The notes beneath the pieces were generated by a model. The model saw only the letters and a list, made by a program, of their open reading frames with translations, searched no databases and was not told the DNA's origin. DNA of 64,000 nucleotides from a virus: positions 32,403-96,402 of IMG/VR virus record IMGVR_UViG_3300027985_000661. The stretch is one strand, 5' to 3'. The position numbers and the translations under genes are program-made. Positions 24,493 to 64,000 of this stretch are shown one piece after another (position 1 is the stretch's first letter; each line of letters opens with the position of its first letter).

Positions 24493-24987
24493 ATGGAAAA
24501 AGAAATATTTAATAATTATAGTATATCGAATACCGGAATTATAAAAAGTAAATTTACCGGTAAAGAAATGAAACAATATATAAGTAATGTAGGATATTCT
24601 GCGGTTAGACTTACAATAGAAAAAGGAAAAACAAAATTATTCCACGTACATGTTTTAATCGCAATTGCTTTTTTAGATTATAGTTTAAGTAGTAATTTAG
24701 TTGTAGATCATAAAAATAATATAAGGACAGATAATAGATTAGAGAATTTACAATTAGTAACTAGAAGATTAAATAATACTAAAGAATTTACAGGGAAAGT
24801 AAAATATCCAGGAGTACATATAGAAAAAGGAAGAAGGCATTATAGAGCTCGGATAAAAAATAAAGATAAGTATTTATCATTAGGTTCCTACTTAGATCCT
24901 AAGGATGCATACAGAGCTTATATGAAATCTTTAAAAGAAATAGATATACAGGCTTATAATTATTATAAAGATATATTTGGAGAATAA
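24493..24987 (+). CDS. Intron-encoded HNH homing endonuclease with AP2-like C-terminal domain
   Basis: YSISNTG N-terminus, HVLIA, VDHKNNIRTDNRLENL (HNH), YPGV...YRARI...LGSY (AP2-like). Confidence 0.85.
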   Translation: MEKEIFNNYSISNTGIIKSKFTGKEMKQYISNVGYSAVRLTIEKGKTKLFHVHVLIAIAFLDYSLSSNLVVDHKNNIRTDNRLENLQLVTRRLNNTKEFTGKVKYPGVHIEKGRRHYRARIKNKDKYLSLGSYLDPKDAYRAYMKSLKEIDIQAYNYYKDIFGE

Positions 24988-25242
24988 ATAACTCCTTTAA
25001 TTGCTGGGAACTCCTATAATAGAGTATAGGGCAATCAGCAGCCAAGCTTCGAAAGAAGAAGGTTCAACGACTAGTCCGGCACGTTAAAAAGTGCGGTAGA
25101 AGGACGTACATCCAAGTGGATGGAAATGGGGAGCACCTTACTAGATAATGCTAAAGGTGAAGATATAGTCTAGTCTGTATGGTAACATACAGCAGTTCAT
25201 AAGAGAACGGGTACAGATTAACGACCTGTATTGAATATTACG

Positions 25243-38344: not shown

Positions 38345-38367
38345 AAAGGGGAGAAGTTACTCTCCCC
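38345..38367 (-). terminator. Intrinsic terminator
   Basis: GGGGAGA stem with TTTT on the minus strand. Confidence 0.65.
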
Positions 38368-42223: not shown

Positions 42224-43000
42224 TTAAATTACTATGTTGGATGAGGGATCTCCTTTAATAGGCTCCTCTATCCTGTTATACTTTAAATTATTTTCAAATT
42301 CAAGTATTTTTAGCTCCCCTTCTCTGTTTTTTAAAAAGTGAGCGTAAACTTTGTTTGTTGTGGGCCACGCATTCAAGCCATAAGCTGTTATGCCTAATGT
42401 TTCTGGACGATGTAATACGAGAACATAGTCAGAAGCTTGGTATATGCTATCTCCGCCGAAAAGATCTCTTCTCATTGGAAAATGCATAGAATGGTTAAGT
42501 ATTCTATCTTTTTCTTCAATATCTCGATTCATTTGAGACAGTTGAATAATAGTGGTACGTCCTAATTTTTTAACTCTCATAAACATTGTCTGTAAATGAG
42601 TTAAAATAGTACGTTCCGCTTCCCCATTTTTACCTCTAGTTAATAGAGTATGGTCTAATTCAATTATTAGCCATTTATCTTTAGCTACCGTATTTAAAAA
42701 ATGGATAATTGTAGTTTCCATTTGTTCTACTGTACCTGGAAAATCAACATAATATATTTCATATTTTTTAATTTTCTCTAATTCTTTCTCTATATTAAGT
42801 AGGTCTTTATCTTGCAAAGTGACGCTAGAGTCGCCACTATACAATTCTTTTGTAGTTTTATTTAAACTAGAAGATAACTTCCTTCCTACTTGGCGTGAGC
42901 TTAACATTTCAAAGTTAAAAGACAAGACAACAAATTCGGTGTCCGGGTTCAATTCAAATAAATCAGTTTCTAATGAATTCACAAAACTAGATTTTCCACT
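42224..43000 (-). CDS. DnaB-like replicative helicase, exon 2
   Basis: SGKSSF completes Walker A; FNFEM, IIELDH, LSQMNR, SIYQASD and KNREG motifs. Confidence 0.9.
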   Translation of the reverse strand, partial: SGKSSFVNSLETDLFELNPDTEFVVLSFNFEMLSSRQVGRKLSSSLNKTTKELYSGDSSVTLQDKDLLNIEKELEKIKKYEIYYVDFPGTVEQMETTIIHFLNTVAKDKWLIIELDHTLLTRGKNGEAERTILTHLQTMFMRVKKLGRTTIIQLSQMNRDIEEKDRILNHSMHFPMRRDLFGGDSIYQASDYVLVLHRPETLGITAYGLNAWPTTNKVYAHFLKNREGELKILEFENNLKYNRIEEPIKGDPSSNIVI

Positions 43001-43404
43001 CGTACCACTACAGTTTTCACTGCCAGCAATCAGGAGCTGTTTGTGGTCTGGACTATATATTCAATCACCAGCCCAAAGGTCTGTGTCTAGGAGAGTTATT
43101 ATATGCGTCTTTCGCGCTTCCTATGTAATGGATTCTAGAATCTTAACCCATAATGATTGTATCTGCATCTAGTCTCTACGGCTGGAGCATTATCCCCTAT
43201 GCCTCGGTATTACCTCTGACCTAATAATCACCGTAGTGGTTACTACCTCACAATCACATTTATACTTTAGTTTATATCAGCTAAAGTCCCGTGATCAGGT
43301 GCTAACTGTATTAGGTTTTAGGATTTCTTACCAGCTTATTCGTCCTGTTAATCAGACAGGTTATATTTTTACCTTAGTTCAGCTGTGACCGATATTCAGA
43401 TATT

Positions 43405-48733: not shown

Positions 48734-49267
48734 TTAAACTATATAAAGTTTTATTTCGACTTCTATAGTTTTATTATACTCTTTCCGGTAATTGTCATGG
48801 TATTTATGAATTTCTTTATTTTTAGAAATATCTTCTTTTAAGGATTTCACCATGTTTTTGTAATCCTCTGAGTTGAAACTTTCGTATTTTTTAATTAAGT
48901 TCAAAATAAGAGCATTTTGTTCTTTAATATCCCCTAATTGATAAATTGACCCATTAATTCCGGTAATTTTTTCTGATTCTGCTGTTCCTGCATTTGCGAT
49001 AGCCATTAGTTGTTTAATTACAGTAGAATTCGCATACAAGGCTTCTAATTTAGCTAATGTCATTAGAATATCATCGCTGCTCAAGTTACTGGCCCCCATA
49101 AGGATTCCTTTATAACTTTTAATTTTATTTATTGTTCTTGTTTTAAGATTTACTAAACCTTTTAAGGAGCATTTCTTGGTAACTGTTTTAAAGTTTTCAA
49201 GTTTAGTAGAATTTATAATTACAGCTCCTTTTTTAATTTTATTATTAATTGAGTTATTATTCAACAT
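48734..49267 (-). CDS. Hypothetical coiled-coil protein
   Basis: 177-aa ORF. Confidence 0.5.
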   Translation of the reverse strand: MLNNNSINNKIKKGAVIINSTKLENFKTVTKKCSLKGLVNLKTRTINKIKSYKGILMGASNLSSDDILMTLAKLEALYANSTVIKQLMAIANAGTAESEKITGINGSIYQLGDIKEQNALILNLIKKYESFNSEDYKNMVKSLKEDISKNKEIHKYHDNYRKEYNKTIEVEIKLYIV

Positions 49268-49922
49268 GTTTTCTGAGATTTTTTTGATTTAACATTTTTG
49301 AAATTAATTTATCCTTTTTGTTTTCTAAATCTAATAAACATAAAGGATTTATTGGAATATTGTCTATGCGTACTTCATAATGTAAATGAGGTCCTGTAGA
49401 CCATCCTGTGTTGCCTAGTGTCCCAATAGTATCATTAATTGTTACTTTTTGCCCTTTTACTATGTTAATATGTTGTAAATGAGCATAGTAGCTTTCAATT
49501 CCTTTCCCATGATTTATTATAATCAAGTTTCCGAAACTGAATGACTTTTTTACCTCTTTTATTACTCCAGTCGCAGCAGGATAAATAGGAGTCCCTATGT
49601 TACCTGAGAAATCTATTCCATTGTGGGATGATTTTATTTTTAAAACTGGATGTATTTCTCTAATACCGTAATATTCACTTATTCTTTTTATTCCTTCTTT
49701 ATCTACAGGTAGACAAATAGGTATATTCTTAGTTTTAATATTGTATTTATTTTTAAGAATGTTAAAAGACAATGAATAGACATTGAAAGCTTCTATTGTA
49801 GAAATTTCCGCTTTTTTAAATGATTTTGAAATTGGTTTAGAAGAATTTAAATTTATTGATGCGGTTAAAAATAGTAAAAAAGCTACAAATAACTTTTTCA
49901 TATGAATTATTTTAGTTAACAC
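49257..49922 (-). CDS. M23 family metallopeptidase with N-terminal signal/anchor (likely start 49901)
   Basis: HNGID, YYAHL and GWSTGPHLHYEV motifs; MKKLFVAFLLFLTAS leader. Confidence 0.9.
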   Translation of the reverse strand: MLTKIIHMKKLFVAFLLFLTASINLNSSKPISKSFKKAEISTIEAFNVYSLSFNILKNKYNIKTKNIPICLPVDKEGIKRISEYYGIREIHPVLKIKSSHNGIDFSGNIGTPIYPAATGVIKEVKKSFSFGNLIIINHGKGIESYYAHLQHINIVKGQKVTINDTIGTLGNTGWSTGPHLHYEVRIDNIPINPLCLLDLENKKDKLISKMLNQKNLRKHVE

Positions 49923-49977
49923 TGGTGTATTTCATTTGTCAACGTTTTGAACAAGTATATACACATAAACTTAATTT

Positions 49978-50002
49978 TACGATAAATTATATTCAAAGTT
50001 AC
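49978..50002 (-). promoter_or_regulatory. ECF-sigma-like promoter motif GTAAC-N16-CGTA
   Basis: Same motif and spacing as upstream of the intron endonuclease ORFs. Confidence 0.55.
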
Positions 50003-50006
50003 GGAG

Positions 50007-50084
50007 TCGGGAGACAGGGCACGACCCCTGCATCTTTAACATTTGATTTATGTATGCTAATGTAGATCATTTCTACTTCTCCCG
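50007..50084 (-). ncRNA. tRNA-like cloverleaf with non-canonical anticodon and T loops
   Basis: CGGGAGA/TCTCCCG acceptor, GTAGA/TCTAC arm, TTAGCAT/ATGTTAA arm with 11-nt loop, CAGGG-GTCGTG-CCCTG arm. Confidence 0.5.
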
Positions 50085-50222
50085 TTAAAATAAAAATACA
50101 ATGGATTTTGAAATGTATGTGCTATTCGGTATACGCCACCTTCCTTTCTTTACATTTTCCTACATGACTTTAATCCTAAGTTCACCTCTTTTGTTAAAGC
50201 AATGAGGCCAACTGCTGATAGT

Positions 50223-51515
50223 TTATGTATTTTTATTTTTTCTTTTATTTATAATACTTTTATATTTTTTGGTAGTAATGAACTTCCAATTTTTATCTTC
50301 TTTTATAGTGTCTTTACAAGAGTCTAAATTTATAGAAACTGTTATATTTCTATTTTCAGTATTATATATATAGTATCTTTTTTCTGGTTTTTCTACTTTA
50401 GTTACTTTTTTATTTTTAGTAACATTTACAGGCTTTGTATTTTTAACTAGCCTTCTCATTTTTCGATTTGCACCTTCACTGCTATTCATTACTGGTAAGG
50501 AATCATAGTAACCATTACCTGCTTTTTTCGCATCTTTCCATGCTTTTTTCGTGCAGTATTCCCATTCTTTATCTTTTGATATTAATATATCTGCGTTTTT
50601 TCTTGAAGTTCTAATACAATTAACTCCTTTAACTAGACATACTAATGATTTTGGGTTTTTAGTAATTTTTCTTTTACTTTTTTCATTTTTTAAAGTGGTA
50701 TAATCAATGTAATCGCATTTTATTTTTGTACCCTTATCTTTATTATAAAGGGCTAACATTTTGTTATATTTCCCTTTAAACAAGTCTTTTAAAATGTCTT
50801 TTTCTTCAGTATGCGTAGTTTTCGGGTCCAAATATTTTAAAATCCCTACTACAGAACTAAGTCTTTTTGGGTTATTTACATTTTCGTATTTTTTACCCAA
50901 ATTTAGTTTATTTGTAGTTTCTTTTTTATTAGTAAAATTAGGTTTAGAAGTATAAATCCATTCTTCTAATTTAGGGTATCTTCTTTTCCAATATTTAGGA
51001 CGTTGACCATAGTCTTCCACTACATACCCAAGCAGCATTTTTAGCCTCTCCATTAAATCTGGGTTTATCTTTTTTTTAAGCTTATCTAATGGGGATTCTT
51101 TTTTAAGTACAGAATATTTGTATAAAGCTAAATAATCGTTTGTTTGTACTTCTGCGTACTCTTCATCTACTACTATAAAAATAGTATTATGTTTGCTAAT
51201 TTCTTTTTTTAACTCTTTAAGAGTAGGGGTGTAATTAAGGTCTATATGTTCTAAAGGAGATAAGTATTTTTTACCCTCTTTATTTGTATCGTATAGTTTT
51301 AACATTCGTTGAGTTTCCCTAGCCGTCTTAATGTTTAATTTATGTAGCATATTTCCAGCAACTATACTATTAGCTACTTTTTTAGCTTTTTTTCTTTTAG
51401 CTTTTTTTACTTTTCTATTTTCAGATAGCGTATTGTTTTTTTTAGATGCGGTAGTATTTAAGTGCTCCAGCTCCGCCACTTTTTGTATCTTTGCGAATTT
51501 AGCCTTCATTGCCAT
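50223..51515 (-). CDS. Lysine-rich hypothetical protein (likely start MAMKAK at 51515)
   Basis: Long basic ORF; the upstream ATG at 51563 falls inside a tRNA-like element. Confidence 0.6.
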   Translation of the reverse strand: MAMKAKFAKIQKVAELEHLNTTASKKNNTLSENRKVKKAKRKKAKKVANSIVAGNMLHKLNIKTARETQRMLKLYDTNKEGKKYLSPLEHIDLNYTPTLKELKKEISKHNTIFIVVDEEYAEVQTNDYLALYKYSVLKKESPLDKLKKKINPDLMERLKMLLGYVVEDYGQRPKYWKRRYPKLEEWIYTSKPNFTNKKETTNKLNLGKKYENVNNPKRLSSVVGILKYLDPKTTHTEEKDILKDLFKGKYNKMLALYNKDKGTKIKCDYIDYTTLKNEKSKRKITKNPKSLVCLVKGVNCIRTSRKNADILISKDKEWEYCTKKAWKDAKKAGNGYYDSLPVMNSSEGANRKMRRLVKNTKPVNVTKNKKVTKVEKPEKRYYIYNTENRNITVSINLDSCKDTIKEDKNWKFITTKKYKSIINKRKNKNT

Positions 51516-51556
51516 AATATATATATTTAAGTTTAAAATAAGGATATTATATCCTA

Positions 51557-51620
51557 GGGGCATTGCTGGGTTCGAACCAGCCTGCTAAATATCTATTTAG
51601 TTTTCTCCTCTGAAATGCCT
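51557..51620 (-). ncRNA. Truncated tRNA-like element (acceptor plus T arm)
   Basis: GGCATT/AATGCC acceptor; perfect T arm GCTGG-TTCGAAC-CCAGC; no D stem; CTAAAT-AGAT-ATTTAG in place of the anticodon arm. Confidence 0.6.
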
Positions 51621-51651
51621 ATGGTATTAAAAATTAAATTTCAAACTTAAA

Positions 51652-52794
51652 TTAGGGTATGCCATACCCTGCCGCACAAATTCTTAAAATACGAGGGATT
51701 CTTTCGTCATCCTTAGTATTTAATGTTAGTATTCTACCTACTATTTCAGTATTAATAGCAATGTTTCTGCTATTAAAAAATTCTTCAAATGATATTAAAT
51801 TAGTAGTAGTGATAGATTTTAAAGTGGATATATTAATTTCAGTTTTTTTAAAAGACCGATTAATATATTCATTAATAGCCAATTTGTATTGTACTACATT
51901 TTCTTTAAAATTAGATTGTAAAATAACTTTATAATCATTTAACCTTTCTTTGAATGTCAAATGGTCGTTATTTTTAAGCTCCCAACCTTTAAAATTAACT
52001 TCTTTTATAAAATCAAAAAAGAATTCATAAGCTGTGTTAATTTCATTTCCTATACTCTTTTTTTTAGCGTTAACTAACTCTGCCATATATAGCTCTCCTA
52101 CATTTTTAGCGCGATTATTAACTTTAAAAGCGCGAGGAATCGCGCTCTCAAAGATTTCATCTAGAGTTAATACAGTTTTATTTAAACTGTACCAATGTTT
52201 TTTAATTACAATTTTGTTAGATTTGATACTAACATAATTAACATTGTTATATAACGCTTTCACTAGTCTTTTTAATTTTTTTTTATCTGTATTTAACATG
52301 GTGAAATGCTTTTTGTTTATATAACTATTTGATAATATAGAAGGATCCCCCAGTAATCCGGGGGACCTTGCTCTACTTATAGGTATAATTAAGGAAGCAA
52401 TGCTATCTAAATTAGCTTTGTTTTCCTTTGTTATTACGTCATTTTTTATATATACTAAGGTATACATTGTAGGTAATGACATTTTCGGACTAATTAAAGT
52501 ATCTTTATTTTTATAAACATACTTTTTATTTTTAATGGCTGTACAATACTTTGGAGTTCTATTAAGGATGCCATCCCTATATTCCGAAAGAGAATCAGTA
52601 ACTTCCTGTTTCTCAACATCCAAAGTATTTTTAATAACCTCTACTTTTTTAATTACAATTTCTTCAGTTTTAGTTTCTGTTATTGTAATTTCATCTTCTT
52701 TAGATATATTTTCATAAACATTATCTAAAATAAGGCCTAATAAAACGCCTAATGTAAAGATTATGATTTTAAAAAATACTTTCTTTTTATACAT
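51652..52794 (-). CDS. Membrane-anchored hypothetical protein (possibly two fused genes; second start at 52299)
   Basis: N-terminal TM helix; strong internal hairpin at 52341-52369. Confidence 0.5.
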   Translation of the reverse strand: MYKKKVFFKIIIFTLGVLLGLILDNVYENISKEDEITITETKTEEIVIKKVEVIKNTLDVEKQEVTDSLSEYRDGILNRTPKYCTAIKNKKYVYKNKDTLISPKMSLPTMYTLVYIKNDVITKENKANLDSIASLIIPISRARSPGLLGDPSILSNSYINKKHFTMLNTDKKKLKRLVKALYNNVNYVSIKSNKIVIKKHWYSLNKTVLTLDEIFESAIPRAFKVNNRAKNVGELYMAELVNAKKKSIGNEINTAYEFFFDFIKEVNFKGWELKNNDHLTFKERLNDYKVILQSNFKENVVQYKLAINEYINRSFKKTEINISTLKSITTTNLISFEEFFNSRNIAINTEIVGRILTLNTKDDERIPRILRICAAGYGIP

Positions 52795-52814
52795 GTTTGA
52801 TTTTTAAGTTTTTA

Positions 52815-53041
52815 TAACTTACGATAATCTCTCCTAGTTATCATTGAGCCCCTTTTCAATTTACTGGCGTTATGGTTTCCACCTAGGGGAACGAACATGG
52901 TATCGTATCAGCTTGCTTTTTCATGTTACTTACTAGGCAAGAACCTTTCGTCTCGTGCTCCGCTGCTCGCTTTTTTCTACTATAGCAGGCTATGCCTTTT
53001 TCTTAGTACAGTGGCCGACAGGCATATACGTTACGCTATAA
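52815..53041 (-). ncRNA. Candidate structured intergenic RNA
   Basis: GC-enriched gap with no ORF; TATAGC/GCTATA, TATGCCT/AGGCATA and TACGATA/TATCGTA stems. Confidence 0.35.
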
Positions 53042-53051
53042 TATAGTTTGA

Positions 53052-53528
53052 TTAAGAATTTAAGATATATGTAATTGCATCAAATATTGATCTTTTTTGC
53101 AATTTTAACATTTGAATTTTATCTTTGTATTCTTTTTGTCTTAATTCAAAGAAGTCTATCTCCTTAACAAAAGGGTTGAATTTTCTGTACGCTTCATATT
53201 CCCTATCAAAAGGGCTATAATTATAAGCGGTCTCTACCCATTCTTCATCAAAGCTTTTTTTGAATTTATGAAAATGTAGTTTTAAACTTATATAGCTTCG
53301 TTGTTCTTTGCAATAATTACAATTACAAGAATTATACTTACTCTTACTATTAAAATAAAAACAATTCCTATCTTCCATATTAAAATTGTACTGTACTTCC
53401 AATTTTCTTTTTTTATCTTTTCTTTTTTGGGATAGTTCTTTTATTATTCTAATTGATTCTTCAGAGTTTTCTTCAAATTCTTTTCTTGCTTTTAATTTTG
53501 CTAATAGAACTACATTAACTAAACTCAT
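53052..53528 (-). CDS. Hypothetical protein with CxCxxC
   Basis: CNCNYC motif. Confidence 0.55.
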   Translation of the reverse strand: MSLVNVVLLAKLKARKEFEENSEESIRIIKELSQKRKDKKRKLEVQYNFNMEDRNCFYFNSKSKYNSCNCNYCKEQRSYISLKLHFHKFKKSFDEEWVETAYNYSPFDREYEAYRKFNPFVKEIDFFELRQKEYKDKIQMLKLQKRSIFDAITYILNS

Positions 53529-53530
53529 TT

Positions 53531-53944
53531 TTATGATTTAATGCTTTTTAAAAAGCTTTCTAAAGCATTAAAATCGGATTTCTTACTTCCGGTAGTCATT
53601 GCTTTATCGAAAAGTTCATTTAATTTAGCTAGTTTTTCTTCAATCTTTTTGCGAGATTTAATTTTTTCATCGCTATATTGAGAAATAGCTACTGTTTCTT
53701 CGCCATCTCCAAGTTGATTGTGAACTACTTTATCTGGTTTTTTTGTAGCGGCCAGGTCGCTTTCTAATTTTAAAATAGCCTCTTCTGCTTTATCAAATAA
53801 AATTGATAATTCATTTTGCAAAGAAGCTAAATATGTATTCTTTTTTTCATTGAATACTACTCCGGACGCATCGTTGTTATTGTCTGCGTTTTTTTTGAAA
53901 TCTACAAATTGTTGATGGATAGACTTTGTTTTATCTTTTGACAT
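53531..53944 (-). CDS. Hypothetical coiled-coil protein
   Basis: 137-aa ORF. Confidence 0.6.
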   Translation of the reverse strand: MSKDKTKSIHQQFVDFKKNADNNNDASGVVFNEKKNTYLASLQNELSILFDKAEEAILKLESDLAATKKPDKVVHNQLGDGEETVAISQYSDEKIKSRKKIEEKLAKLNELFDKAMTTGSKKSDFNALESFLKSIKS

Positions 53945-53991
53945 ACTTTATCTTTTTAAAATTGTAACTTTATTTTTAGAATAGTAAAAGA

Positions 53992-54085
53992 GGGCCTAAC
54001 CTCTTATGTAAATCGCGCTATTTACACGGGTACGTTCAGCTTTTCCTTTAAGGGAGAACAGTCCATATCCAAGATCATTAGGCCC
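53992..54085 (-). ncRNA. Candidate 94-nt multi-branch RNA element
   Basis: Closing stem GGGCCTAA/TTAGGCCC; internal GTTC/GAAC and TGTAAAT/ATTTACA stems. Confidence 0.45.
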
Positions 54086-54092
54086 GTAGTTT

Positions 54093-54542
54093 TTATCCCA
54101 ATTTTTCGTTTAATAACTCACAAAATTGAGAAAGTTCTTCTAATTTCTTAATTGCACGCATAGTGGCATTACGCATGCTTGTGTTGAAATCTTTTGCATA
54201 AGCTTCGGCTACTGCCGCATCTCCTGCCCAAACATTTGGTCCCATAGCAATTTTAGTTTGGTCTAATGGGATTTCGATTTCTTCAATTCCTTTGGCAGCG
54301 TTTTCGCCTTCATGCACCGGTTTTCCATCTTCTCTTACATGAACCCCTACTATTTTTAAAGCAGTGTTTGCATCATTAATTGATACTGCTTTTACCATAA
54401 ATCTTTCAACTGTAGCAAATACTAAAGATCCTGGTTGAAGTAATTTGACACCTTCGTCATCTTTTGTATGTGTTCTTACTGTGAAAATTACTTGAGTACA
54501 GTGAATTCCTGTTACGTTTTGAAATGGAGTGTTAGTAACCAT
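54093..54542 (-). CDS. Hypothetical protein
   Basis: 149-aa ORF. Confidence 0.6.
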   Translation of the reverse strand: MVTNTPFQNVTGIHCTQVIFTVRTHTKDDEGVKLLQPGSLVFATVERFMVKAVSINDANTALKIVGVHVREDGKPVHEGENAAKGIEEIEIPLDQTKIAMGPNVWAGDAAVAEAYAKDFNTSMRNATMRAIKKLEELSQFCELLNEKLG

Positions 54543-54906
54543 AATTTTGATTTTTTAAAATGTTATTTAATAGTAAAAATTTTTCTTGTTTCGAGTTGCT
54601 ATATATCTCTTTGATTTCAACTCTAGAAGAAAGAATGTCTTTCTTATAATCTATAATAGGATAAAGTAATCTATACCAATTCCTGCTAAATATTTCTTTT
54701 GTTTCCCTATCGAATATTGAAGCTAAGGGTTTCCAATAATATGTAGCTTGGCCTTTTAATAGCACTTTAAAGAAGTAAAAATTATATATTTTTTTTACAT
54801 TAAGTAATTCAATTAATACTCCTCCTATTTTTTCTGTTTTATCTACCCCACCTATTATATAAGTAGGTATAGAAGTTTCACTTGAGATAATTTTATATTT
54901 TTTCAT
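54532..54906 (-). CDS. Hypothetical protein
   Basis: 124-aa ORF. Confidence 0.5.
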   Translation of the reverse strand: MKKYKIISSETSIPTYIIGGVDKTEKIGGVLIELLNVKKIYNFYFFKVLLKGQATYYWKPLASIFDRETKEIFSRNWYRLLYPIIDYKKDILSSRVEIKEIYSNSKQEKFLLLNNILKNQNYGY

Positions 54907-54924
54907 TTTTCTGAAGTTAAAAAA

Positions 54925-56025
54925 GGGGAGAACACTAGTTATGTCCGATAAAAGTGATGGCTCCCCCTATGTTATTCGATTTTCAGTTTTTTGAGTTATA
55001 TTACCTCTTCAAATTTTGTTCTTGTTACGAATTAATCGTTTAAGGCGTTTGCCCATAAAATATGTAAATTAAAAAATTACTCGATTTAAATGTTTATAGC
55101 ATGACTTGTAGGGATCTTGTTGATCTGGTTTAAATAAAATATAATAATTTTTCTCTATAATGTGCTGACTTTACACCATTAGACACCTATGCGAATGCCC
55201 TTAAAGATTCGAATTTCTCCGCCTGCTTTTCTTTTTTAGATATTATTATTATTTTTTAAATACTAGTCTGTAATTATTCGTCAATATATTATTACCTACT
55301 ATATAAAAGGTGGGATTTAAACTCTTTATACCCAACACATTTGGTAAACCAAGTGTTAGTCACGACGGTACCATAAGATACAAAATGCTTCGTTCACTTG
55401 CATACTTTTATATATTTACTATAAAATTTAAATTTTTTCATTCTTTGTTCCCTACTAACTTCTTTTTTAAAAAGAAATACTATATTACTTACGTTGTTAC
55501 ATAATATATTATTTACTTTACGCTTTTGGAGAACGGTTATATCTAGACTTACTTGCTTAAAGCTTTCTCATCTTAACCAAAATACCATTAAATAAAATAT
55601 CTATTCTAAATTTGTATCAATACAACCTACAATGTTCTTTTATTCTTATACATCCTACTCCCGACTATACTATATATAAAAACTTTTGGACAGTTTCTAG
55701 TCGCATTCAACAGGCTATCTTTCAAGCTTTTCCCTTAAGTAGTTGAAATATATAGTTTTAAGAGATATAGTTTACCTTCCTCCGTCATCCAAATGCGTAT
55801 TTAAATCTCCTCTCGGAATCATTTACTCTATACTATCTGCCGATTTAGTATAAATTCATGCCCTGAGTATCTTAGATAAAGAATAAAATAAGTATTGTTA
55901 CCAGACTTGCACTGGCCCTACCTCCTTGTTACAATTTATGAATTATTTTAATAATAATATTCCTATTTACTTGTTTACTTCGCTAATCAGTGCAGCGAAG
56001 CCTAACATATGGCACATTAGGTTTT
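54925..56025 (-). ncRNA. Candidate large structured non-coding RNA region
   Basis: About 1.1 kb with no sense-strand ORF of 60 aa or more; many nested inverted repeats. Confidence 0.4.
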
Positions 56026-56035
56026 TGGATATTCT

Positions 56036-57685
56036 TTAAAAATAGCGCGAATCTACTTTTTTATAATTTTTTCTAATAATTCCATCAGGGTTTGTATATG
56101 GGTACACGTTTCCTAATTTTGAGTAGTTGTCCACATATTTATTTATTCTCCCTTTTAGAGTTTTTAGTTCCATCATCACTTCAGTAGGGGAAAGCTCTTT
56201 ACTTTCTCCATAACTAAAGTCAGGCTCTACGATTAAAATAAGCTCAGGTTCTCCGTTTTTATTTGTACCTACTATGATAGTAGCACTTTTTACAAGCGGT
56301 TCTCTATATGCTATATCTAATATTTTTTGAGTTTGCACTGTTTTACCTTCTGAAGTAAGATACATTGATATATTCTTACCCAAAAGATATAAAGCGCCAT
56401 TTTTAGCATAGCCTATGTCTCCTGTTCTTAATTTTCCTACATAATTTTCATTTAATAAGAAGTTCTTTCTAGTGTGATCGGATGTTAAATATCCATCTGC
56501 CATATCTACACATTCTATAAAAACTTCCCCAATTTCACTTTCTGTATCTTCGCTTATAGTTATTTTATCCTCAATTTTAGGAATAATACCTATATTTTTT
56601 GGTAAATAAAAATAAGATTTTTTGCCTACATATGTTGCAACTTCTGTCATTGTATATAATACAGTATATTTGACTTTAATTGCGTTTAATATGCCTCTTC
56701 TTTTTATTTTACCATTAATGAAAATTTCTTTTAATTTTAATCCAAAACGTTTTTTGAATTCTTTTAAAACTAATAAATGTCTTAAAGGTTTCCAGAACCT
56801 TAGTAGTGGTGTTACCTCCCTTTCGAGAGCAGTTAAAATGTATTCTAATTTTTCCGCATTGATATACATTTGATCCACGTTTTTATTTTCCATACTTTTT
56901 AATATGGTATAATAATCTAAAGGATCCCCTATTATTACTTTCGCTCCCTTTAGCATAGGTATAATAATACCATTTGTAATATCGTAAAGTGAATTAAAAG
57001 GTTCAAAAGTTATAAATGTATCTTTGATTTTATGAGAGTCATCTTCTATTACTGTCCTTAGTCCTCTATAAATAGAGTGGTGGGATATTTTAGAAGCGTT
57101 GAACACACCTTTACTAATTCCATTATGAAATATAATACCATAATATTCTATTTTTTTAGGTGTAATGAATTCATTTTTAATAGGGATGGTTTCTTTGTTT
57201 TCCCATAATTTTTCTGTATTAATAAGATCTTTGAGCTCATTAAAGATTTTATCATAAGTTCTTATGGTACTTATATTCCCCATTTTATAATTAATTCCTT
57301 TTACAATAACATTTAATGTTTTAGGATTAATTGTTAATGTATTTCCTTCATTAGGGTTTTCCAATGCTTCTTCTGAAAGAAGTAATCTTTTAGAAGAACT
57401 TGGTTCAGCTACTGCCAATTTAGCTAGACTATCTGATTTAGGTTCTGTATTATCTAAAATAGTAAAATTAATTCCGTAACTTAAACATGCTATTATAGAT
57501 GCAGTCCCTACTAAAGGGTCGTCTGTTAAAATGGCAACTAAATCTTTAGAATCTATATCTAAGGATTGAAATAAATCTGAATATGTTTTCGCCCTAACTA
57601 ATATTTGTTTTCCAGTAATAGGTACTCCATCCTTCCCTATTATTGCAATATTATTAGATATTTCTCTTAAATATTTTTTGAACAT
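56036..57685 (-). CDS. Divergent AMP-binding (acyl-CoA synthetase/ANL superfamily) protein
   Basis: YTMTE (YGxTE-like), GEVFI, MADGY and LRTGDIG...LYLLGK motifs; P-loop degenerate (FHNGISKG). Confidence 0.7.
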   Translation of the reverse strand: MFKKYLREISNNIAIIGKDGVPITGKQILVRAKTYSDLFQSLDIDSKDLVAILTDDPLVGTASIIACLSYGINFTILDNTEPKSDSLAKLAVAEPSSSKRLLLSEEALENPNEGNTLTINPKTLNVIVKGINYKMGNISTIRTYDKIFNELKDLINTEKLWENKETIPIKNEFITPKKIEYYGIIFHNGISKGVFNASKISHHSIYRGLRTVIEDDSHKIKDTFITFEPFNSLYDITNGIIIPMLKGAKVIIGDPLDYYTILKSMENKNVDQMYINAEKLEYILTALEREVTPLLRFWKPLRHLLVLKEFKKRFGLKLKEIFINGKIKRRGILNAIKVKYTVLYTMTEVATYVGKKSYFYLPKNIGIIPKIEDKITISEDTESEIGEVFIECVDMADGYLTSDHTRKNFLLNENYVGKLRTGDIGYAKNGALYLLGKNISMYLTSEGKTVQTQKILDIAYREPLVKSATIIVGTNKNGEPELILIVEPDFSYGESKELSPTEVMMELKTLKGRINKYVDNYSKLGNVYPYTNPDGIIRKNYKKVDSRYF

Positions 57686-57978
57686 AGTTTTTTGTTTTTG
57701 ATTGAATATTCCATAGAAACTCCTATAGTAGGATCTCCTATTTTAAGAGAAATTTCAAGATCGTTTTCTTGACTTTTTAAAATGACTTTTCCGTTTTTTA
57801 TCTGTCTTATTTTTGAAATTAAGCTTAATTTTATAGAATCATAGTAAAAGAAATTGGTAGTGTCATTTTCTTTATATTCATCGGGATCTGTAGAGCTGAT
57901 TAGCGCGAGTTCTTGCATTACAAATCCTAATACTATTCTTTCTATCCTTTTATTGCTTATAACGTCTCCTTTTTTCAT
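57667..57978 (-). CDS. Hypothetical protein
   Basis: 103-aa ORF overlapping the next start. Confidence 0.5.
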   Translation of the reverse strand: MKKGDVISNKRIERIVLGFVMQELALISSTDPDEYKENDTTNFFYYDSIKLSLISKIRQIKNGKVILKSQENDLEISLKIGDPTIGVSMEYSIKNKKLCSKNI

Positions 57979-58057
57979 ATTAATAAAAATGATAGGCCTT
58001 AAAGCCTGTTAAACAATAAGGCCTACCATAGGCCAGTTATTTTACAATAACTTTATA

Positions 58058-59962
58058 TTAAACAGCTTTTTCTAACTTCATGAAATCAATATTATTGAAT
58101 TCTAAGCCGGAAGGAATCATGGTCATTACTGTTCCTTTTCCTCCTTTTGCTTTAGCTTTGTCATTGTTTTCTCTTACTTTTTTAATGTAAGCATCCATTG
58201 CTTTTTTGAATTCTTTTTTCAAATCTTCATATTTAGCTACTTGGATTACTTTAATTTCGTTTTCAAATCCTTCTAAATGGCAATCCCATCCGATAGTTTT
58301 ACCTGTGGATTTTTCTACTCTTTGGGTAATTACAGCTACATATTTAGTTTCTTTTTTCTTTGCTGTATTTCCATTTCCACTAGCAGTCTTTGACTGGGCA
58401 TGTACCTTATTTTCCTTTCTTTTTTTTGTGTCGTTGTTATTGGTTTGTTTATTACTCCCAGTAGTTGCGGGTAACGCCTTCTCTCCTTCCTTTTTCTCAA
58501 TTGAAGCAGGTTTTCCTGGAAGTTCATTTTTAACTTTTAATTTAATTTTAAGTGAATCTCCCATTTCTTCTTCAGTTAATAATCCAGAAGAATGCATTTT
58601 TTTAATAACCCTGTTCATAATGTTATCAACTTTTGAATTGGGCCATTCTACTCCTGTTTCTACTGTAGCGGTTGTTTTTCCAGCTTTTGGTTTTTGAGCT
58701 GGTACTGATTTAATGCTATAAGAATAAGCTTTAATTAATTTGCGGATCCCTTCTTCTGCCTTTCTAAAGTCTTTGTCTTTTTCTTTATGGTAAAGAAATA
58801 GATTTTCGATTAACTTATCTAACATTGGGTTTCCTTTATTTTCCTTACTAATTAAATTAAGGAAATTAAGAGCTTTTTCTTTATCCCATACATGTCCATT
58901 CTTTTTATCTGAATAAAAGTGAATTAATTCTTGAATAGCCACGTGGTCTTTTTTAATACTTCTAAAATATAAAGCTCTTGCTTTTACAAGATCATCCGGG
59001 TTGCATGAATCCATACATTTTGTAGGGTTATTGAAATCTGAAGTTCCTACAAGTAGAGTAGTATTGAATTCATTTTTTACAGCTAAAGGTACTTTTTCTT
59101 CTGCTAATTCTTTACCTGAAATTAATTTATTCAAATCAACCCCTATTTTACCGGTTAATTTTTGAGCTTTAAACTCTGTTAAAAGTTCTTTTTCTTTTGT
59201 GTCTTTGTTTGCGTTTTTAAATTTAGTAGTTAAATTATTGATTGTAGATCTTAGATCTCTAATGCCTAAACTATAGTTATTCATTAGATCACATACTTTA
59301 TAGTAAATGGCTGCTTTTTCAGGCTCCCCTTTACTTTTTTCCCAGCTTTCTACTAATTCTTTTTGTTCCTCTTTAGTTAAAGGAACGTCCACTAATTGTG
59401 TGTATACTTCTTTTGTAGTATCGCTTACTTTTTGATCAGGGGCATAAGCGAGACCCTGTTCTATTTTTTTTTCTAGTTCGGTTTTTTCTTCTTTATAACC
59501 GGCTCCAGGTGATAAATTTTTTGTTTCTTCTTTGTTTGCTTTTTTTTCTTTGATTGCACTTGTTTTACCTAGAAAATCTGGGTTAAATGGAATTTTAATT
59601 TGTTTCGCATCTGGCGTTTTTAGTACATCTACAGTAGGGACAAGTTGTTCAAGTGTTTTCCCTTGTGTACTTACTTGCATTTTATCTTTTAAACGTGAAA
59701 TAGATAAAGCCATATATTTTTCAATAATAGCTTCAATTTCCATTTTTTTGCGGTAATAAATATTAGACGAAGTATTTGCTAAATTTTCAAATACTTTATC
59801 GTTGTTTTCGAATGTTACTCCTTTTTGAGTTAGTCCAGATAAAGCAATAGGTCTTGCTGATTCTCTTACTGAACATTCTCCATAATAAGTTGCTAAAGCA
59901 ATTAAATCTTGTATTGATGCGGCTTCTATTTTTTGCATATTTTTTAAATTTAAGTTTGACAA
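58058..59962 (-). CDS. Large K/E-rich hypothetical protein
   Basis: 634-aa ORF. Confidence 0.65.
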   Translation of the reverse strand: MSNLNLKNMQKIEAASIQDLIALATYYGECSVRESARPIALSGLTQKGVTFENNDKVFENLANTSSNIYYRKKMEIEAIIEKYMALSISRLKDKMQVSTQGKTLEQLVPTVDVLKTPDAKQIKIPFNPDFLGKTSAIKEKKANKEETKNLSPGAGYKEEKTELEKKIEQGLAYAPDQKVSDTTKEVYTQLVDVPLTKEEQKELVESWEKSKGEPEKAAIYYKVCDLMNNYSLGIRDLRSTINNLTTKFKNANKDTKEKELLTEFKAQKLTGKIGVDLNKLISGKELAEEKVPLAVKNEFNTTLLVGTSDFNNPTKCMDSCNPDDLVKARALYFRSIKKDHVAIQELIHFYSDKKNGHVWDKEKALNFLNLISKENKGNPMLDKLIENLFLYHKEKDKDFRKAEEGIRKLIKAYSYSIKSVPAQKPKAGKTTATVETGVEWPNSKVDNIMNRVIKKMHSSGLLTEEEMGDSLKIKLKVKNELPGKPASIEKKEGEKALPATTGSNKQTNNNDTKKRKENKVHAQSKTASGNGNTAKKKETKYVAVITQRVEKSTGKTIGWDCHLEGFENEIKVIQVAKYEDLKKEFKKAMDAYIKKVRENNDKAKAKGGKGTVMTMIPSGLEFNNIDFMKLEKAV

Positions 59963-59979
59963 TATAAGGTAAGTAAAAT

Positions 59980-60582
59980 CTAAGAAGTATTTTTCCTAAT
60001 TTTACTTATACCTGGATTACTAATGCTTTTGTGGGCGTACTTAACATTAGTTTCTTTTTTTAAAATGTTGTATTTTATAATAGGCATTTTTAAATCTATA
60101 ATTTTAGTTATATTTTTCAAAGGCTCTATTATATAAACGGTTTCTTTAAATTTACATTTTAAAGCAGGAATTCGTATGTGTGTATTATAATATGTAAAAG
60201 ATATACTATCATAATTTTCCTTTTTTAAATATTCTTTAAATAATGTATAATCTAAGATACCAGTGTCCCTATAAGGGTGTGAACTTTTAATGGAATCAAT
60301 TTTTTCTTTATTAAAATTTAAATGGGACATGTATATTATTCTAAGTCTTACATCTTTTATATATAGATGTGAATTAAAATAAAGGGATGTTCCATCTCTG
60401 AAGTGCACTACTTGATAAGTAATGCCTTTAATTTCTTCCATAGTGACGCTGTCAATATACTCTTTTTCTGAAGTTTGAAATGCATACTCCACGTCCTCTA
60501 TTTCTTTTACTTTATCTTTGTTATCGCATCCGAATACAAAAAATAGTAAAAACATTAGTACTAAAATAATTAATTTTTTCAT
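59980..60582 (-). CDS. Putative lipoprotein
   Basis: MKKLIILVLMFLLFFVFG-C lipobox followed by DNKDK. Confidence 0.65.
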   Translation of the reverse strand: MKKLIILVLMFLLFFVFGCDNKDKVKEIEDVEYAFQTSEKEYIDSVTMEEIKGITYQVVHFRDGTSLYFNSHLYIKDVRLRIIYMSHLNFNKEKIDSIKSSHPYRDTGILDYTLFKEYLKKENYDSISFTYYNTHIRIPALKCKFKETVYIIEPLKNITKIIDLKMPIIKYNILKKETNVKYAHKSISNPGISKIRKNTS

Positions 60583-60622
60583 TTAATTTGATTTTTGAAA
60601 ATTTATAAATTGTTGAAGTGAG

Positions 60623-60655
60623 ATTAAAGGCCCACATAATGCGGGCCTTAATAAA
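60623..60655 (-). terminator. Intergenic hairpin
   Basis: AAGGCCC-ACATAATGC-GGGCCTT. Confidence 0.5.
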
Positions 60656-60667
60656 AAGCAAGTATTC

Positions 60668-61084
60668 CTACTTTTCTAGTAGTGAGTTCAAAGCAATCAT
60701 TATTGCTTCCGGAATTTCTTCGTTGAATGCTGTTGCTTTTTCAACTAATTTGTCTTCCCTTAAATTTGTTTTAGCAAAAAAGTATTTTTCTACTTCGGTA
60801 TTTCTATCATCTTGTTCTTTTACAATTTGACAACTAACACCTAGGCTTTCTAATACTTTCTTAAGTAATTCTAATTCTGTTGGTGGAGTATTTTCTTTTT
60901 TTACAAAAGAGTGAATAAAAATAGGACTTTCATTGTTAATACCAACAGATTTTTTTAATGCTTCTTCTGTTAGAGATACAATGTTTTTCATAATTTTATT
61001 CTTTTCTTCTTGTTTTATTCTTCCAACAAGATCTCGTAAATCAAAGGCAATGCCTCCCCCTACTAAAAGTGCGACTTTTTCCAT
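60668..61084 (-). CDS. Hypothetical protein
   Basis: 138-aa ORF. Confidence 0.55.
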   Translation of the reverse strand: MEKVALLVGGGIAFDLRDLVGRIKQEEKNKIMKNIVSLTEEALKKSVGINNESPIFIHSFVKKENTPPTELELLKKVLESLGVSCQIVKEQDDRNTEVEKYFFAKTNLREDKLVEKATAFNEEIPEAIMIALNSLLEK

Positions 61085-61159
61085 TTAAGTAAATTTAAAT
61101 TTGAAATATGGTTTATACCATGTGGTATAACCTTTAATTAAAAAGATTATACCTTTAAA

Positions 61160-61495
61160 TTACAGTTCTATATATTTTGAAGAACATTTCCGTATTAATT
61201 TTTCAAATCCTCCACTTATCTTACATCTTCCGCATTTACACCATACAGTATGGTAAGTATATCTACTTTCGATTGCTGAATTGCAAGATAAACAGAATAT
61301 TGCATTTTTTTGAATATTTTTACCGATTAATTCTTCTTGTATAAAAACTATATTTTGTACTTTAATTTTATTTTTTTTACTTATAGCGCTTCTTGTAATT
61401 ACATAGGTTGTTGGATCTTTTTCTTTTTTTAGTATTTTTACATATTTAAGACATGCTATTGGTCTTGGGATAATAATATTAAAATTGTTATCCAT
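61160..61495 (-). CDS. Small Zn-binding phage protein
   Basis: CLSC...IES...WCKCG...GG pattern. Confidence 0.6.
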   Translation of the reverse strand: MDNNFNIIIPRPIACLKYVKILKKEKDPTTYVITRSAISKKNKIKVQNIVFIQEELIGKNIQKNAIFCLSCNSAIESRYTYHTVWCKCGRCKISGGFEKLIRKCSSKYIEL

Positions 61496-61512
61496 AAATT
61501 AATGTTTTGATG

Positions 61513-61731
61513 TTACACTTGTATAACTAAAGTATCTTTAATTAATGGGTTATCTAATTCTACACTTCCCACTATCTTTTCTCCTTGTTTACAAATTATT
61601 TTATTAAAATCCTTATTATTACTTGTAATTTTATCCATAATTTGAACAAAAGAAAGTTTAGAGTTTGTAGTATGTTTAATGTAGAATATAAGATTTTCAA
61701 TTTTCTTAACGTTTTTTTTAGTTGTACTCAT
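61513..61731 (-). CDS. Hypothetical protein
   Basis: 72-aa ORF. Confidence 0.5.
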   Translation of the reverse strand: MSTTKKNVKKIENLIFYIKHTTNSKLSFVQIMDKITSNNKDFNKIICKQGEKIVGSVELDNPLIKDTLVIQV

Positions 61732-61732
61732 T

Positions 61733-62380
61733 TTACTTTATTTTTTTATATACTCCATTTTCAATTACATTTATAAAAGAGTTATTTTTATTTACTGCTA
61801 TTGAATGGCCGGGGTAGATAAAAAATGTGTCTACAGGCAAAATTTTAAATAAAGTAGAATAAATTTTACGTTGCTTTACTAAATCTTTTAATAGAGGTCC
61901 TCCAATTAAAATGGTTTGTAAATTAGAGCGCATTACATCTTTAGTTAAATGTTTGAAGAAATAATCTAATTCTTCTGTTATAGTATAAAGGTGAGGATGT
62001 ATTTCTTTTACTCCTAAAATATTTAATATTTTTGAAGCTTTTGTTACAGTATCCAAATCTCTATCAATAAGAATTACATTTTTTACTTCCATTTTAAATT
62101 CTTTTCTTTTTGCTAAAAGAAATTCTCGCATAGCAGTAGTTAGCAATGCAGAGTTATTCCCTATTCCACATCCAAGGTCAATTATTTGCAACCCTTCATA
62201 TTTATTTGGATCTAGATAAGGATAAATAGAGGGGATTACGTCTTCTATGACATCAAATTCTGTCATCATAGTAGGTGGATACGCTACAGGATCTGGTTTT
62301 ATTTTTAAAGATTCTGCTTCTAATTTTAAAATAGCCGCTGCTAATACTTTATAGCAAGTGGAATACGTAATTCTTTTCAT
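61733..62380 (-). CDS. Class I SAM-dependent methyltransferase-like protein
   Basis: IIDLGCGIG motif I and ILID acidic motif II. Confidence 0.7.
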   Translation of the reverse strand: MKRITYSTCYKVLAAAILKLEAESLKIKPDPVAYPPTMMTEFDVIEDVIPSIYPYLDPNKYEGLQIIDLGCGIGNNSALLTTAMREFLLAKRKEFKMEVKNVILIDRDLDTVTKASKILNILGVKEIHPHLYTITEELDYFFKHLTKDVMRSNLQTILIGGPLLKDLVKQRKIYSTLFKILPVDTFFIYPGHSIAVNKNNSFINVIENGVYKKIK

Positions 62381-62400
62381 TTTATTTGATTTAAAAGATG

Positions 62401-62607
62401 TTACATGTAAATTTCATCAGGTGAAAGTCCGTATTTAGTTAATATCTTATCTGTTTTACGCCTTTCTTCTTTTTTTATAATATTGATATTCCATAGTAGG
62501 TATAATATTATAAATGCTAGAATTAGGCATATTCCTAATAACGATATAAAATAAATATCGAACTTCATCAAGATGATTTCTAATTTATTTTTTAATAATT
62601 CTGACAT
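62401..62607 (-). CDS. Small membrane protein
   Basis: Single long hydrophobic helix. Confidence 0.55.
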   Translation of the reverse strand: MSELLKNKLEIILMKFDIYFISLLGICLILAFIILYLLWNINIIKKEERRKTDKILTKYGLSPDEIYM

Positions 62608-62992
62608 AATAATTACTATTTTTTACTTTATTAATGTCATCTCTTAACTTGTAAACATTTTTAAAAATGATTTCAGGTTCTTGCAATTTAGCATGCGTAT
62701 TATACAGCTCTTTATAGATATTCATTGCTTTATTAGAGCCTACATCTTGCAAAGTTTGCATTACTTCATTGCTTTCTGATATTAATTTTTTAATTTCGAG
62801 CATATTTATTTTTTGCCCTTGACTGCCCATTAATCCAGTGTTGATTGTAATGTCTCTTCTGCGTAATGTTACTATTTCGTTTAATATTTTTTTTAATTTC
62901 TTTTTTTCTTTACTATAAAGAAAAGCTAAAGTAAAGATTAACATGGAAGCAATTATCATTGCCGCATGCATTAGATTTACGTCTATAATCAT
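62585..62992 (-). CDS. Membrane-anchored coiled-coil protein
   Basis: N-terminal TM helix. Confidence 0.55.
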   Translation of the reverse strand: MIIDVNLMHAAMIIASMLIFTLAFLYSKEKKKLKKILNEIVTLRRRDITINTGLMGSQGQKINMLEIKKLISESNEVMQTLQDVGSNKAMNIYKELYNTHAKLQEPEIIFKNVYKLRDDINKVKNSNYYVRIIKK

Positions 62993-63006
62993 AATTTTTT
63001 GATTTA

Positions 63007-63270
63007 TTATAGTAAATAAAAAATACGGAGCTCTCTAAATACACCCCCTATAAATATATTTACATGGTTATTGAAATATTCATCTTTAGGTTTATATTTT
63101 TTAATTTCTGAATTTTCATCAGCTAATACTAGTATTTCATCTCCTGCTTTTAAAGATAAAAAGGGTAAATCAAATCTCATAGTACGTTTTATAAGAGTTA
63201 GTTCTGTTTCCATATGTTTATTTTTTGATTTGTAAAAGGGGCCTAAGCCCCCATCACACAACAACAACAA
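63007..63270 (-). CDS. Hypothetical protein (likely start METE at 63213)
   Basis: A-rich leader before the ATG; hairpin upstream. Confidence 0.5.
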   Translation of the reverse strand: MLLLCDGGLGPFYKSKNKHMETELTLIKRTMRFDLPFLSLKAGDEILVLADENSEIKKYKPKDEYFNNHVNIFIGGVFRELRIFYLL

Positions 63271-63275
63271 TTATT

Positions 63276-63524
63276 TTACCAATTCCATATTTTTTCAGTT
63301 TTTTTTATTTTATTTTTTAAATAAGTAGAACAGTATTTATATAATTCTACTAATAATTCTGGATTATCAGTTAAAAAAGTAAAGATAGTATTTCCAAATC
63401 TTTCTTCTATTTTATTTTGAACGTATGAAAGATTATTTTTATTATCTTGTCTAATTATATCAATTAGATCTAGCCAGTATAATACAATTTCTACTTCTTG
63501 ATTAGTAAGATTATTTGCATTCAT
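63276..63524 (-). CDS. Hypothetical protein
   Basis: 82-aa ORF. Confidence 0.5.
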   Translation of the reverse strand: MNANNLTNQEVEIVLYWLDLIDIIRQDNKNNLSYVQNKIEERFGNTIFTFLTDNPELLVELYKYCSTYLKNKIKKTEKIWNW

Positions 63525-63545
63525 GACTTTTAGTTTTGGTTAGTG

Positions 63546-63608
63546 CCCCATTAGAGAGAATCGAACTCTACATTTTATTATTTCAATGGCTTTCCTGGCC
63601 TAATGGGA
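63546..63608 (-). ncRNA. tRNA-like element with degenerate anticodon arm
   Basis: CCCATTA/TAATGGG acceptor, GGC-CAGGAAA-GCC arm, AGAG-TTCGATT-CTCT T arm. Confidence 0.55.
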
Positions 63609-63798
63609 TGTTTTAAAATAAGCAGAGTTTAAATTTGATTTAAATATACCCTGCTTATTTATTTTTTCTATCAATATTCAGTCTTATTATTATATTATAT
63701 TATATTATATTAAATTATTTAACCTGGCGACCGAATATGAATTTGGTTTAAGTTAACATTGTAGACCATATATATATAATTTTGATTAAGGATCTAAT

Positions 63799-63999
63799 TT
63801 AACTTATATTTAATATTTTAAACACTTCTTCAGTTAAATACTTTCTACAAATATCTGCTGTTTGTTGTCGATTTTCTTTTAAAGCAGCAGCATTAGCATT
63901 AGCGGCAGCATAAGCAGCATTAGCGGCAGCATAAGCAGCATTAGAGGCATCTGCGTAAGTATTAGCAGCATTAGCGGCAGCATAAGCAGCATTAGCGGC
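63799..63999 (-). CDS. C-terminal fragment of an Ala-rich repeat (AAYAAAN) phage protein
   Basis: Reads AANAAYAAANAANTYADASNAAYAAANAAYAAANANAAALKENRQQTADICRKYLTEEVFKILNIS stop; 21-nt tandem repeat GCATTAGCGGCAGCATAAGCA. Confidence 0.7.
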   Translation of the reverse strand, partial: AANAAYAAANAANTYADASNAAYAAANAAYAAANANAAALKENRQQTADICRKYLTEEVFKILNIS

Positions 64000-64000
64000 A

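Follow-up and report, generated by a model that had tools for sequence, protein, structure and literature searches.

The stretch of viral DNA analyzed here, referred to as the window, is 64,000 nucleotides (nt) long, represents positions 32,403 to 96,402 of the virus record IMGVR_UViG_3300027985_000661, and carries three elements with the outline of a transfer RNA (tRNA), which are designated elements 1, 2, and 3 (Table 1). It forms the last 64 kb of this complete 96,402-bp record, which has terminal repeats of 144 bp. The very large virion proteins, the family-A DNA polymerase, and the two opposed gene blocks found in the record indicate a crAss-like layout, and the public runs that contain this phage are hydrothermal-vent metagenomes. 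All three elements are intergenic and lie on the sense strand of the minus-strand gene block, which has a G+C content of 26 to 30%. The initial annotation had interpreted them as tRNA mimics without a usable anticodon located in gene leaders. As described below, elements 1 and 2 bear a tRNA-type signature and are unable to decode, and element 3 lies at a gene boundary and is closed by a stem of a family that recurs in this genome.

Table 1. Coordinates of the three elements and of associated features (window positions unless marked otherwise)
Feature	Position	Strand	Basis or remark
Element 1, putative tRNA-derived relic	51558..51620	-	sequence, fold, Rfam, alignment to viral tRNAs
Element 1, acceptor 5' strand	51620-51614	-	
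Element 1, D-loop remnant	~51613-51601	-	
Element 1, hairpin	51600-51585	-	
Element 1, T arm	51581-51565	-	
Element 1, acceptor 3' strand	51564-51558	-	
Element 1, discriminator C	51557	-	
Terminator-like hairpin AGGGTAT-GGC-ATACCCT	51654..51670	-	terminator scan, fold
15-bp A/U-rich inverted repeat	51526..51652 (arms 51652-51638, 51540-51526)	-	minimum-free-energy fold
Element 2, putative tRNA-derived relic	63547..63607	-	sequence, acceptor/T-arm scan
Element 2, acceptor	63607-63601 + 63553-63547	-	
Element 2, T arm	63570-63554	-	
Element 2, discriminator G	63546	-	
Terminator-like 13-bp hairpin, 3' arm running into T-rich stretch	63616..63660	-	fold; followed after 8 nt by element 2
Element 3, four-way junction closed by CGGGAGA/TCTCCCG	50008..50084	-	fold
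Recurrent GGGAG(A)...(T)CTCCC stems at gene boundaries	genome 4840-4857	+	
	38366-38349, 54965-54926, 50083-50009	-	
Promoter-like motif GTAAC-N16-CGTA	49978..50002	-	regex scan
Copies of GTAAC-N16-CGTA	genome 4247, 4862, 7614, 10239, 41755	+	
	50002, 45778	-	
M23 peptidase gene	49257-49922	-	Peptidase_M23, E = 8.7e-31
Degenerate tRNA-like elements of phage G001 (L012/L017)	1537-1610, 102961-103018, 103101-103197	-	beside real tRNAs

Structure and tRNA signature of the elements

The layouts first described were reproduced for all three elements. In element 1, an acceptor stem (GGCATT/AATGCC; six of seven pairs, with an A1-C72 mismatch) is joined to a perfectly paired T arm (GCTGG-TTCGAAC-CCAGC), a D stem is absent, and the position of the anticodon arm is taken by a 6-bp hairpin with a 4-nt loop. 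The pair probabilities of acceptor and T arm in the minimum-free-energy (MFE) fold are mostly above 0.9, and the T arm is the only one in the genome with a perfect G53-C61 TTCRA configuration. Element 2, which falls short of tRNA length by about 14 nt, has an acceptor stem with all seven pairs formed (CCCATTA/TAATGGG) and a T arm with four of five stem pairs and the loop TTCGATT, connected by an A/T-rich, poorly paired middle part in which a 3-bp D-like stem abuts the acceptor without the linker of positions 8 and 9. Its tRNA-like fold (-13.0 kcal/mol) lies close to the MFE (-13.4 kcal/mol), and the pair probability of the T stem is about 0.18. The fold z-scores of elements 1 and 2 (-1.1 and -0.8, respectively) are ordinary, and their antisense strands are at least as stable. 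The MFE structure of element 3 is a full cloverleaf of -27.3 kcal/mol (z-score of -4.55; as stable as none of 200 shuffles), compared to -24.1 kcal/mol for the antisense strand. Within its closing stem it comprises a 5-bp hairpin with a 5-nt loop lacking GG, a 7-bp stem with an 11-nt loop, and, at the T position (50030-50015), an arm with the 6-nt loop GTCGTG. As claimed, CCA does not follow the discriminator in any of the three, and the distances to the next start codon, given as 20 to 105 nt, were measured as ~42 nt for element 1 (ATG 51515), 21 nt for element 2, and 85 to 105 nt for element 3.

The loops at the anticodon position have 4 to 6 nt in element 1, ~10 nt in element 2, and 11 nt in element 3, a 7-nt loop with U33 and an anticodon is found in none of them, and a D arm with a 3- to 4-bp stem and G18-G19 is absent from all. 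The T-arm features of tRNAs (G53-C61 and T54-T55-C56-R57-A58) are perfect in element 1, accompanied by the four stem pairs in element 2, and missing in element 3. That the elements are nevertheless working tRNAs of an unconventional, rewired or armless type which standard finders overlook is scarcely credible, as in none of them are U33 and a plausible anticodon presented in a 7-nt loop, in element 1 the 3 nt separating hairpin and T arm are too few for a displaced D strand, and searches of viral contigs with exact and degenerate patterns of elements 1 and 2 gave zero copies. These searches returned only ordinary tRNAs that share the acceptor stem of element 1 and lie on contigs with no relation to this phage.

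ARAGORN called neither tRNAs nor transfer-messenger RNAs (tmRNAs) in the window or genome-wide. Pseudogene or undetermined calls had been expected, but even with the threshold relaxed to -ps80 none of the three elements was called and only noise appeared elsewhere. Rfam searches of the whole genome at gathering thresholds gave no tRNA either. In local searches of 161 to 201 nt, the Rfam tRNA model RF00005, which has a gathering score of 29 bits, aligned to element 1 along model positions 1-71 with a score of 14.9 bits (161-nt search, E = 1.2) and did not match element 2 or element 3 (201-nt search for the latter). Element 2 gave a weak antisense match to an Rfam family that resembles antisense tRNA.

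Both strands were scanned for an acceptor/T-arm signature, defined as a TTCGA T loop on a 5-bp stem abutting a 7-nt strand whose partner lies 55 to 95 nt upstream, with at least 11 of the 12 acceptor and T-stem pairs being of the Watson-Crick type and with tRNA spacing. The genome contains two matches, elements 1 and 2, compared to a mean of 0.03 in order-2 Markov shuffles. As the criterion had been framed after the elements had been seen, a control run was performed on 587 kb of bacterial and viral DNA. It yielded 89 matches, 87 of which were within ARAGORN-called tRNAs, indicating that the signature is a highly specific marker of tRNA-derived sequence. The two matches outside tRNAs were a degenerate element of the phage G001 described below and a site on a tRNA-rich viral contig. 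The latter (L082:6288-6382, plus strand) is a 95-nt acceptor/T-arm match that may represent an unconventional tRNA. Element 3 does not show the signature.

These numbers bear on the possibility that all three elements are merely fortuitous stems in AT-rich intergenic DNA. The failure of ARAGORN at relaxed thresholds would fit such a chance resemblance, as would the Rfam score of element 1, which after rescaling of the E value corresponds to ~0.2 expected matches per genome for the tRNA family alone. Cloverleaf shapes are likewise not enriched overall, with 37 in the genome compared to 28 to 63 in shuffles. Against this stand the excess of signature matches over the shuffled expectation, the rarity with which the signature fires outside tRNAs in real DNA, and the intergenic, sense-strand position of all three elements. 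Moreover, element 3 is the most stable cloverleaf of tRNA geometry in the genome and exceeds every one found in 16 shuffled genomes (-26.2 versus -24.1 kcal/mol for the best of these), a lead that is suggestive only. We consider chance an improbable explanation.

Element 1 could be compared with real tRNAs. Its 3' 21-mer occurs identically in 63 betaproteobacterial sequences, and all five of these that were checked with ARAGORN were tRNA-Val(CAC) genes. As its acceptor stem is also present in viral tRNAs of four isotypes (Val, Ile, Met, and Lys), the isotype of element 1 cannot be assigned. Viral tRNAs with this acceptor stem align with element 1 from end to end, including a D-loop remnant, and the alignment has three short gaps, which correspond to deletions of ~7 nt in the D arm, 1 nt in the anticodon loop, and 3 nt in the variable loop; a further change, G1 to A, breaks the 1-72 pair. 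The 3' part of element 2 is similar to the 3' ends of phage tRNA-Thr and tRNA-Arg, with nonsignificant E values of 2 to 7, and one or two deletions could explain the loss of its middle part.

The surroundings of the two elements have a feature in common, a terminator-like hairpin on the upstream side. The one preceding element 1 by 33 nt overlaps the stop codon of an upstream open reading frame (ORF) of 380 amino acids. The 13-bp hairpin preceding element 2 is long compared to a shuffle mean of 9.0 bp, with 2 of 100 shuffles reaching this length. Element 1 is further enclosed, together with a small hairpin containing TATAAT, by an inverted repeat that ends 11 nt ahead of ATG 51515; its 15 bp compare to a shuffle mean of 10.4 bp, and again 2 of 100 shuffles had one as long. 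This repeat could form a long-range RNA stem, for example as a site for a double-strand-specific RNase, or could be an insertion footprint. An in-frame ATG at 51563 (minus strand) falls in the 3' acceptor strand of element 1 and precedes the database-called start at 51515 by 48 nt, and if this codon were used, the structure of element 1 would span the start codon. The gap between element 2 and the ORF at the record end contains a (TATAA)5 run near 63700-63725. This ORF has ~208 amino acids, extends across the record ends from window positions 63799-64000 (minus strand) to genome positions 145-576, and encodes tandem Ala/Tyr/Asn-rich repeats (AAYAAANAA...).

Element 3 and the gene boundary

The tRNA likeness of element 3 is confined to its shape, since identity nucleotides of the T and D loops are missing and no tRNA was among its blastn matches. 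Its closing stem, GGGAGA/TCTCCC, is also the stem of three other hairpins of the genome, each of which is followed by a T run, and GGGAG...CTCCC pairs occur 11 times on both strands compared to 2.9 expected. In element 3 the stem is directly followed by GACTCCGTAAC, so that the U tract of an intrinsic terminator is absent.

Six nucleotides after the closing stem starts the motif GTAAC-N16-CGTA, which is located upstream of the M23 peptidase gene. With seven exact copies in the genome compared to 0.39 expected, all co-oriented with the local genes and upstream of ORFs, it probably constitutes a phage-specific promoter class. Near-variants of the motif are present ahead of intron-borne endonuclease ORFs. 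The order of hairpin and motif is repeated at genome positions 4840-4886, where a plain GGGAGA hairpin stands in front of a copy of the motif. Lying ahead of the promoter-like motif, element 3 would belong to the 3' end of the upstream transcription unit and not to the leader of the peptidase gene, to which it had initially been assigned. The perfect pairing of all four stems, combined with loops that are not those of a tRNA, points to an independent structured RNA and not to a decayed tRNA. We propose that element 3 would form a branched RNA at the 3' end of the upstream unit, closed by the standard GGGAGA/TCTCCC stem of this phage, and that it may serve a boundary role as a terminator, as a 3'-end stabilizer, or in another way.

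Origin and possible processing of elements 1 and 2

The reading we favor, with a probability of roughly 0.55, is that elements 1 and 2 are recent tRNA relics, which host RNase P and RNase Z may still cut, and that element 3 is an unrelated boundary element. Accordingly worded, the term tRNA mimic without a usable anticodon would hold for elements 1 and 2, which appear to be tRNA derived and cannot decode, but not for element 3, which shares only the shape. The crAss-like lineage would formerly have carried tRNA genes, of which elements 1 and 2 would be the remnants. Small deletions would have removed the D stem, shortened or rezipped the loop of the anticodon arm, and cut back the variable loop, abolishing decoding, while the acceptor stacked on the T arm would have stayed intact. 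For RNase P, RNase Z, and the CCA-adding enzyme, a minihelix of acceptor and T arm suffices as a substrate. With this minihelix preserved, the relics, if transcribed, are probably still excised from read-through transcripts as a side effect, and excision would set the ORF on the downstream side apart from the mRNA upstream, which ends in a hairpin.

Support for an origin by decay comes from the only relative detected. In protein-based locus searches of viral and metagenome contigs, this was a distant phage (G001/L002-L003) with 25 to 37% protein identity, a DNA polymerase 33% identical, and no synteny at the element sites. It carries 19 tRNAs and, in addition, three degenerate tRNA-like elements that have good T arms and score below threshold, indicating that tRNA arrays and their decay occur in such phages. 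A promoter-like motif, ...ATTGTTGA-N8-AGTTACTTC, is repeated in G001 in seven minus-strand copies, one of which is located inside a tRNA-like element that comes after a duplicated tRNA 5' half. A blastn search with a 4-kb region against phage records gave no match, and the two proteins flanking element 1 are ORFans that matched only themselves among 5.8 billion proteins. In three runs (two studies, possibly including the source sample), the DNA contigs were identical across positions 49500-64000 and thus showed zero variation.

Alternatively, the relics may have been exapted as processing signals, that is, maintained, whatever their origin, because cuts by RNase P and RNase Z at these sites would punctuate polycistronic phage RNA and give the ORF that follows a defined 5' end, the mRNA ahead of it being closed by a hairpin. 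The initial annotation had argued for selection from the retention of the acceptor/T-arm half. Indeed, the half recognized by the enzymes is intact and the decoding half is lost, both elements lie on the sense strand, each preceded by a terminator-like hairpin and followed by an ORF, the GC-rich stems persist in an AT-rich genome, and for element 1 the inverted repeat around it and its agreement with the t-element motif GGTTCRANYCC (PMC1920247) can be added. However, element 1 has suffered about four disabling events, one of which affects the acceptor/T-arm half, which makes up ~40% of a tRNA. This is the number and placement predicted by random decay, and the argument that a half which is kept must have been selected is therefore without statistical force. 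There are two cases only, element 2 adopts its T arm in a minority of conformers, the folding energies are unremarkable with antisense strands at least as stable, and many other junctions in the strand block possess plain GC-rich terminators and no such elements. Maintenance as processing signals is thus possible but doubtful, and pseudogene decay, previously named as the alternative, is the better-supported origin of elements 1 and 2.

Several observations weigh against relics plus a boundary element. The relics have kept GC-rich, near-perfect acceptor and T stems in a region of 27% G+C, and no intact tRNA is left in the genome; this would be expected if inactivation was very recent or if selection has retained them. 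The hairpin at the anticodon position of element 1 is perfectly paired and not eroded. An intact tRNA at either site was found in no syntenic relative, so that the proposed origin is deduced from sequence alone, and Rfam support is weak, amounting to the 14.9 bits of element 1 and nothing for element 2. Finally, the closing stem of element 3 is not followed by a U tract, as it would be in a canonical intrinsic terminator.

Two other origins were rejected. A tRNA fragment of an attachment site was ruled out, as the complete genome has no integrase or resolvase (no Phage_integrase or Resolvase match, with positive controls). Splitting of tRNA halves by a homing cassette was discarded, as no D-arm remnants or other T-arm remnants are present elsewhere in the genome.

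If elements 1 and 2 are only products of decay, a vent-derived crAss-like lineage has recently given up its own tRNAs, and look-alikes of the acceptor/T-arm half should be checked against controls before the term mimic is applied to them. If, on the other hand, they are retained signals for RNase P and RNase Z, the punctuation of mRNAs by tRNAs would extend from organelles to phages and would provide a simple mechanism of operon processing for the Crassvirales, whose transcript architecture is poorly known.

Apart from the three elements, the window contains a group I intron at 24946-25192 (plus strand; 95.1 bits, E = 3e-23 in an Rfam E-value search) in the region of the giant virion RNA polymerase gene, which was not listed in the gathering-threshold Rfam run with its fast filters. 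Three long minus-strand stretches (54907-56035, 52795-53051, and 42908-43404) have no sense-strand ORF, are partly G+C rich, and look structured; none of them had an Rfam match at E values up to 10.

Comparison with known systems

The combination of an acceptor and a T arm without an anticodon arm is reminiscent of the tRNA-like domain of tmRNA and of the bacterial, Y-RNA-like tRNA mimic YrlA. The elements differ from these RNAs in lacking a G3-U70 pair and an mRNA-like or Ro-binding module, and a mimic of the tmRNA or YrlA type was rejected, as ARAGORN found no tmRNA and no Rfam match to these families was obtained at E values up to 10.

Phage tRNAs have been reported to neutralize tRNA-cutting defenses, as described for PARIS and the tRNA-Lys of T5 (PMC11464382) and for the evasion of retron effectors (PMC11555353). 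Like these, the elements studied here are phage-borne, tRNA-shaped RNAs that might have a role besides codon supply, and part of the tRNA shape is kept. They could therefore be imagined as decoys or sponges for host nucleases or toxins acting on tRNAs, as had been suggested. In these reports, though, the countermeasures are described as specific, whole tRNAs, whereas elements 1 and 2 are devoid of a normal, usable anticodon loop, the target of anticodon nucleases. In addition, the elements are single copy and have no promoter motif of their own, and genes for tRNA repair or CCA addition were not found in the phage, the search for RNA ligases having been made without a positive control. The case for decoys is weak, and we judge this function very improbable.

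A closer parallel is offered by the t-elements of plant mitochondria, noncanonical tRNA-like structures with the motif GGTTCRANYCC that adjoin mRNA ends (Forner et al. 2007, PMC1920247). They have been proposed or shown to be substrates of RNase P and RNase Z, and mapped transcript ends match the element borders (PMC1920247). The motif is present exactly in element 1, both of its ends are missed by element 2 (AGTTCGATTCT), and element 3 does not match. Unlike the t-elements, the elements described here belong to a phage genome. By analogy, a tRNA-less crAss-like phage might have kept the halves recognized by RNase P and RNase Z as cut marks between cistrons, giving a phage counterpart of t-elements, which we regard as rather unlikely.

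The degenerate tRNA-like elements of G001 resemble the proposed relics in that the T arm is canonical and the acceptor paired, the D and anticodon regions are damaged, and the scores remain below the Rfam gathering threshold, and they too are co-oriented with the genes and located shortly upstream of ORFs. In contrast to those of G001, the relics stand alone instead of within an array, in a genome without an intact tRNA. For element 3, the nearest counterparts are the intrinsic terminators of the phage itself at genome position 4840 and window positions 38366 and 54965, which have the same GGGAGA/TCTCCC stem, and the hairpin at genome position 4840 even occupies the same slot ahead of GTAAC-N16-CGTA. 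Compared to these terminators, element 3 lacks the T run and carries a 63-nt insert of three hairpins in place of the short loop.

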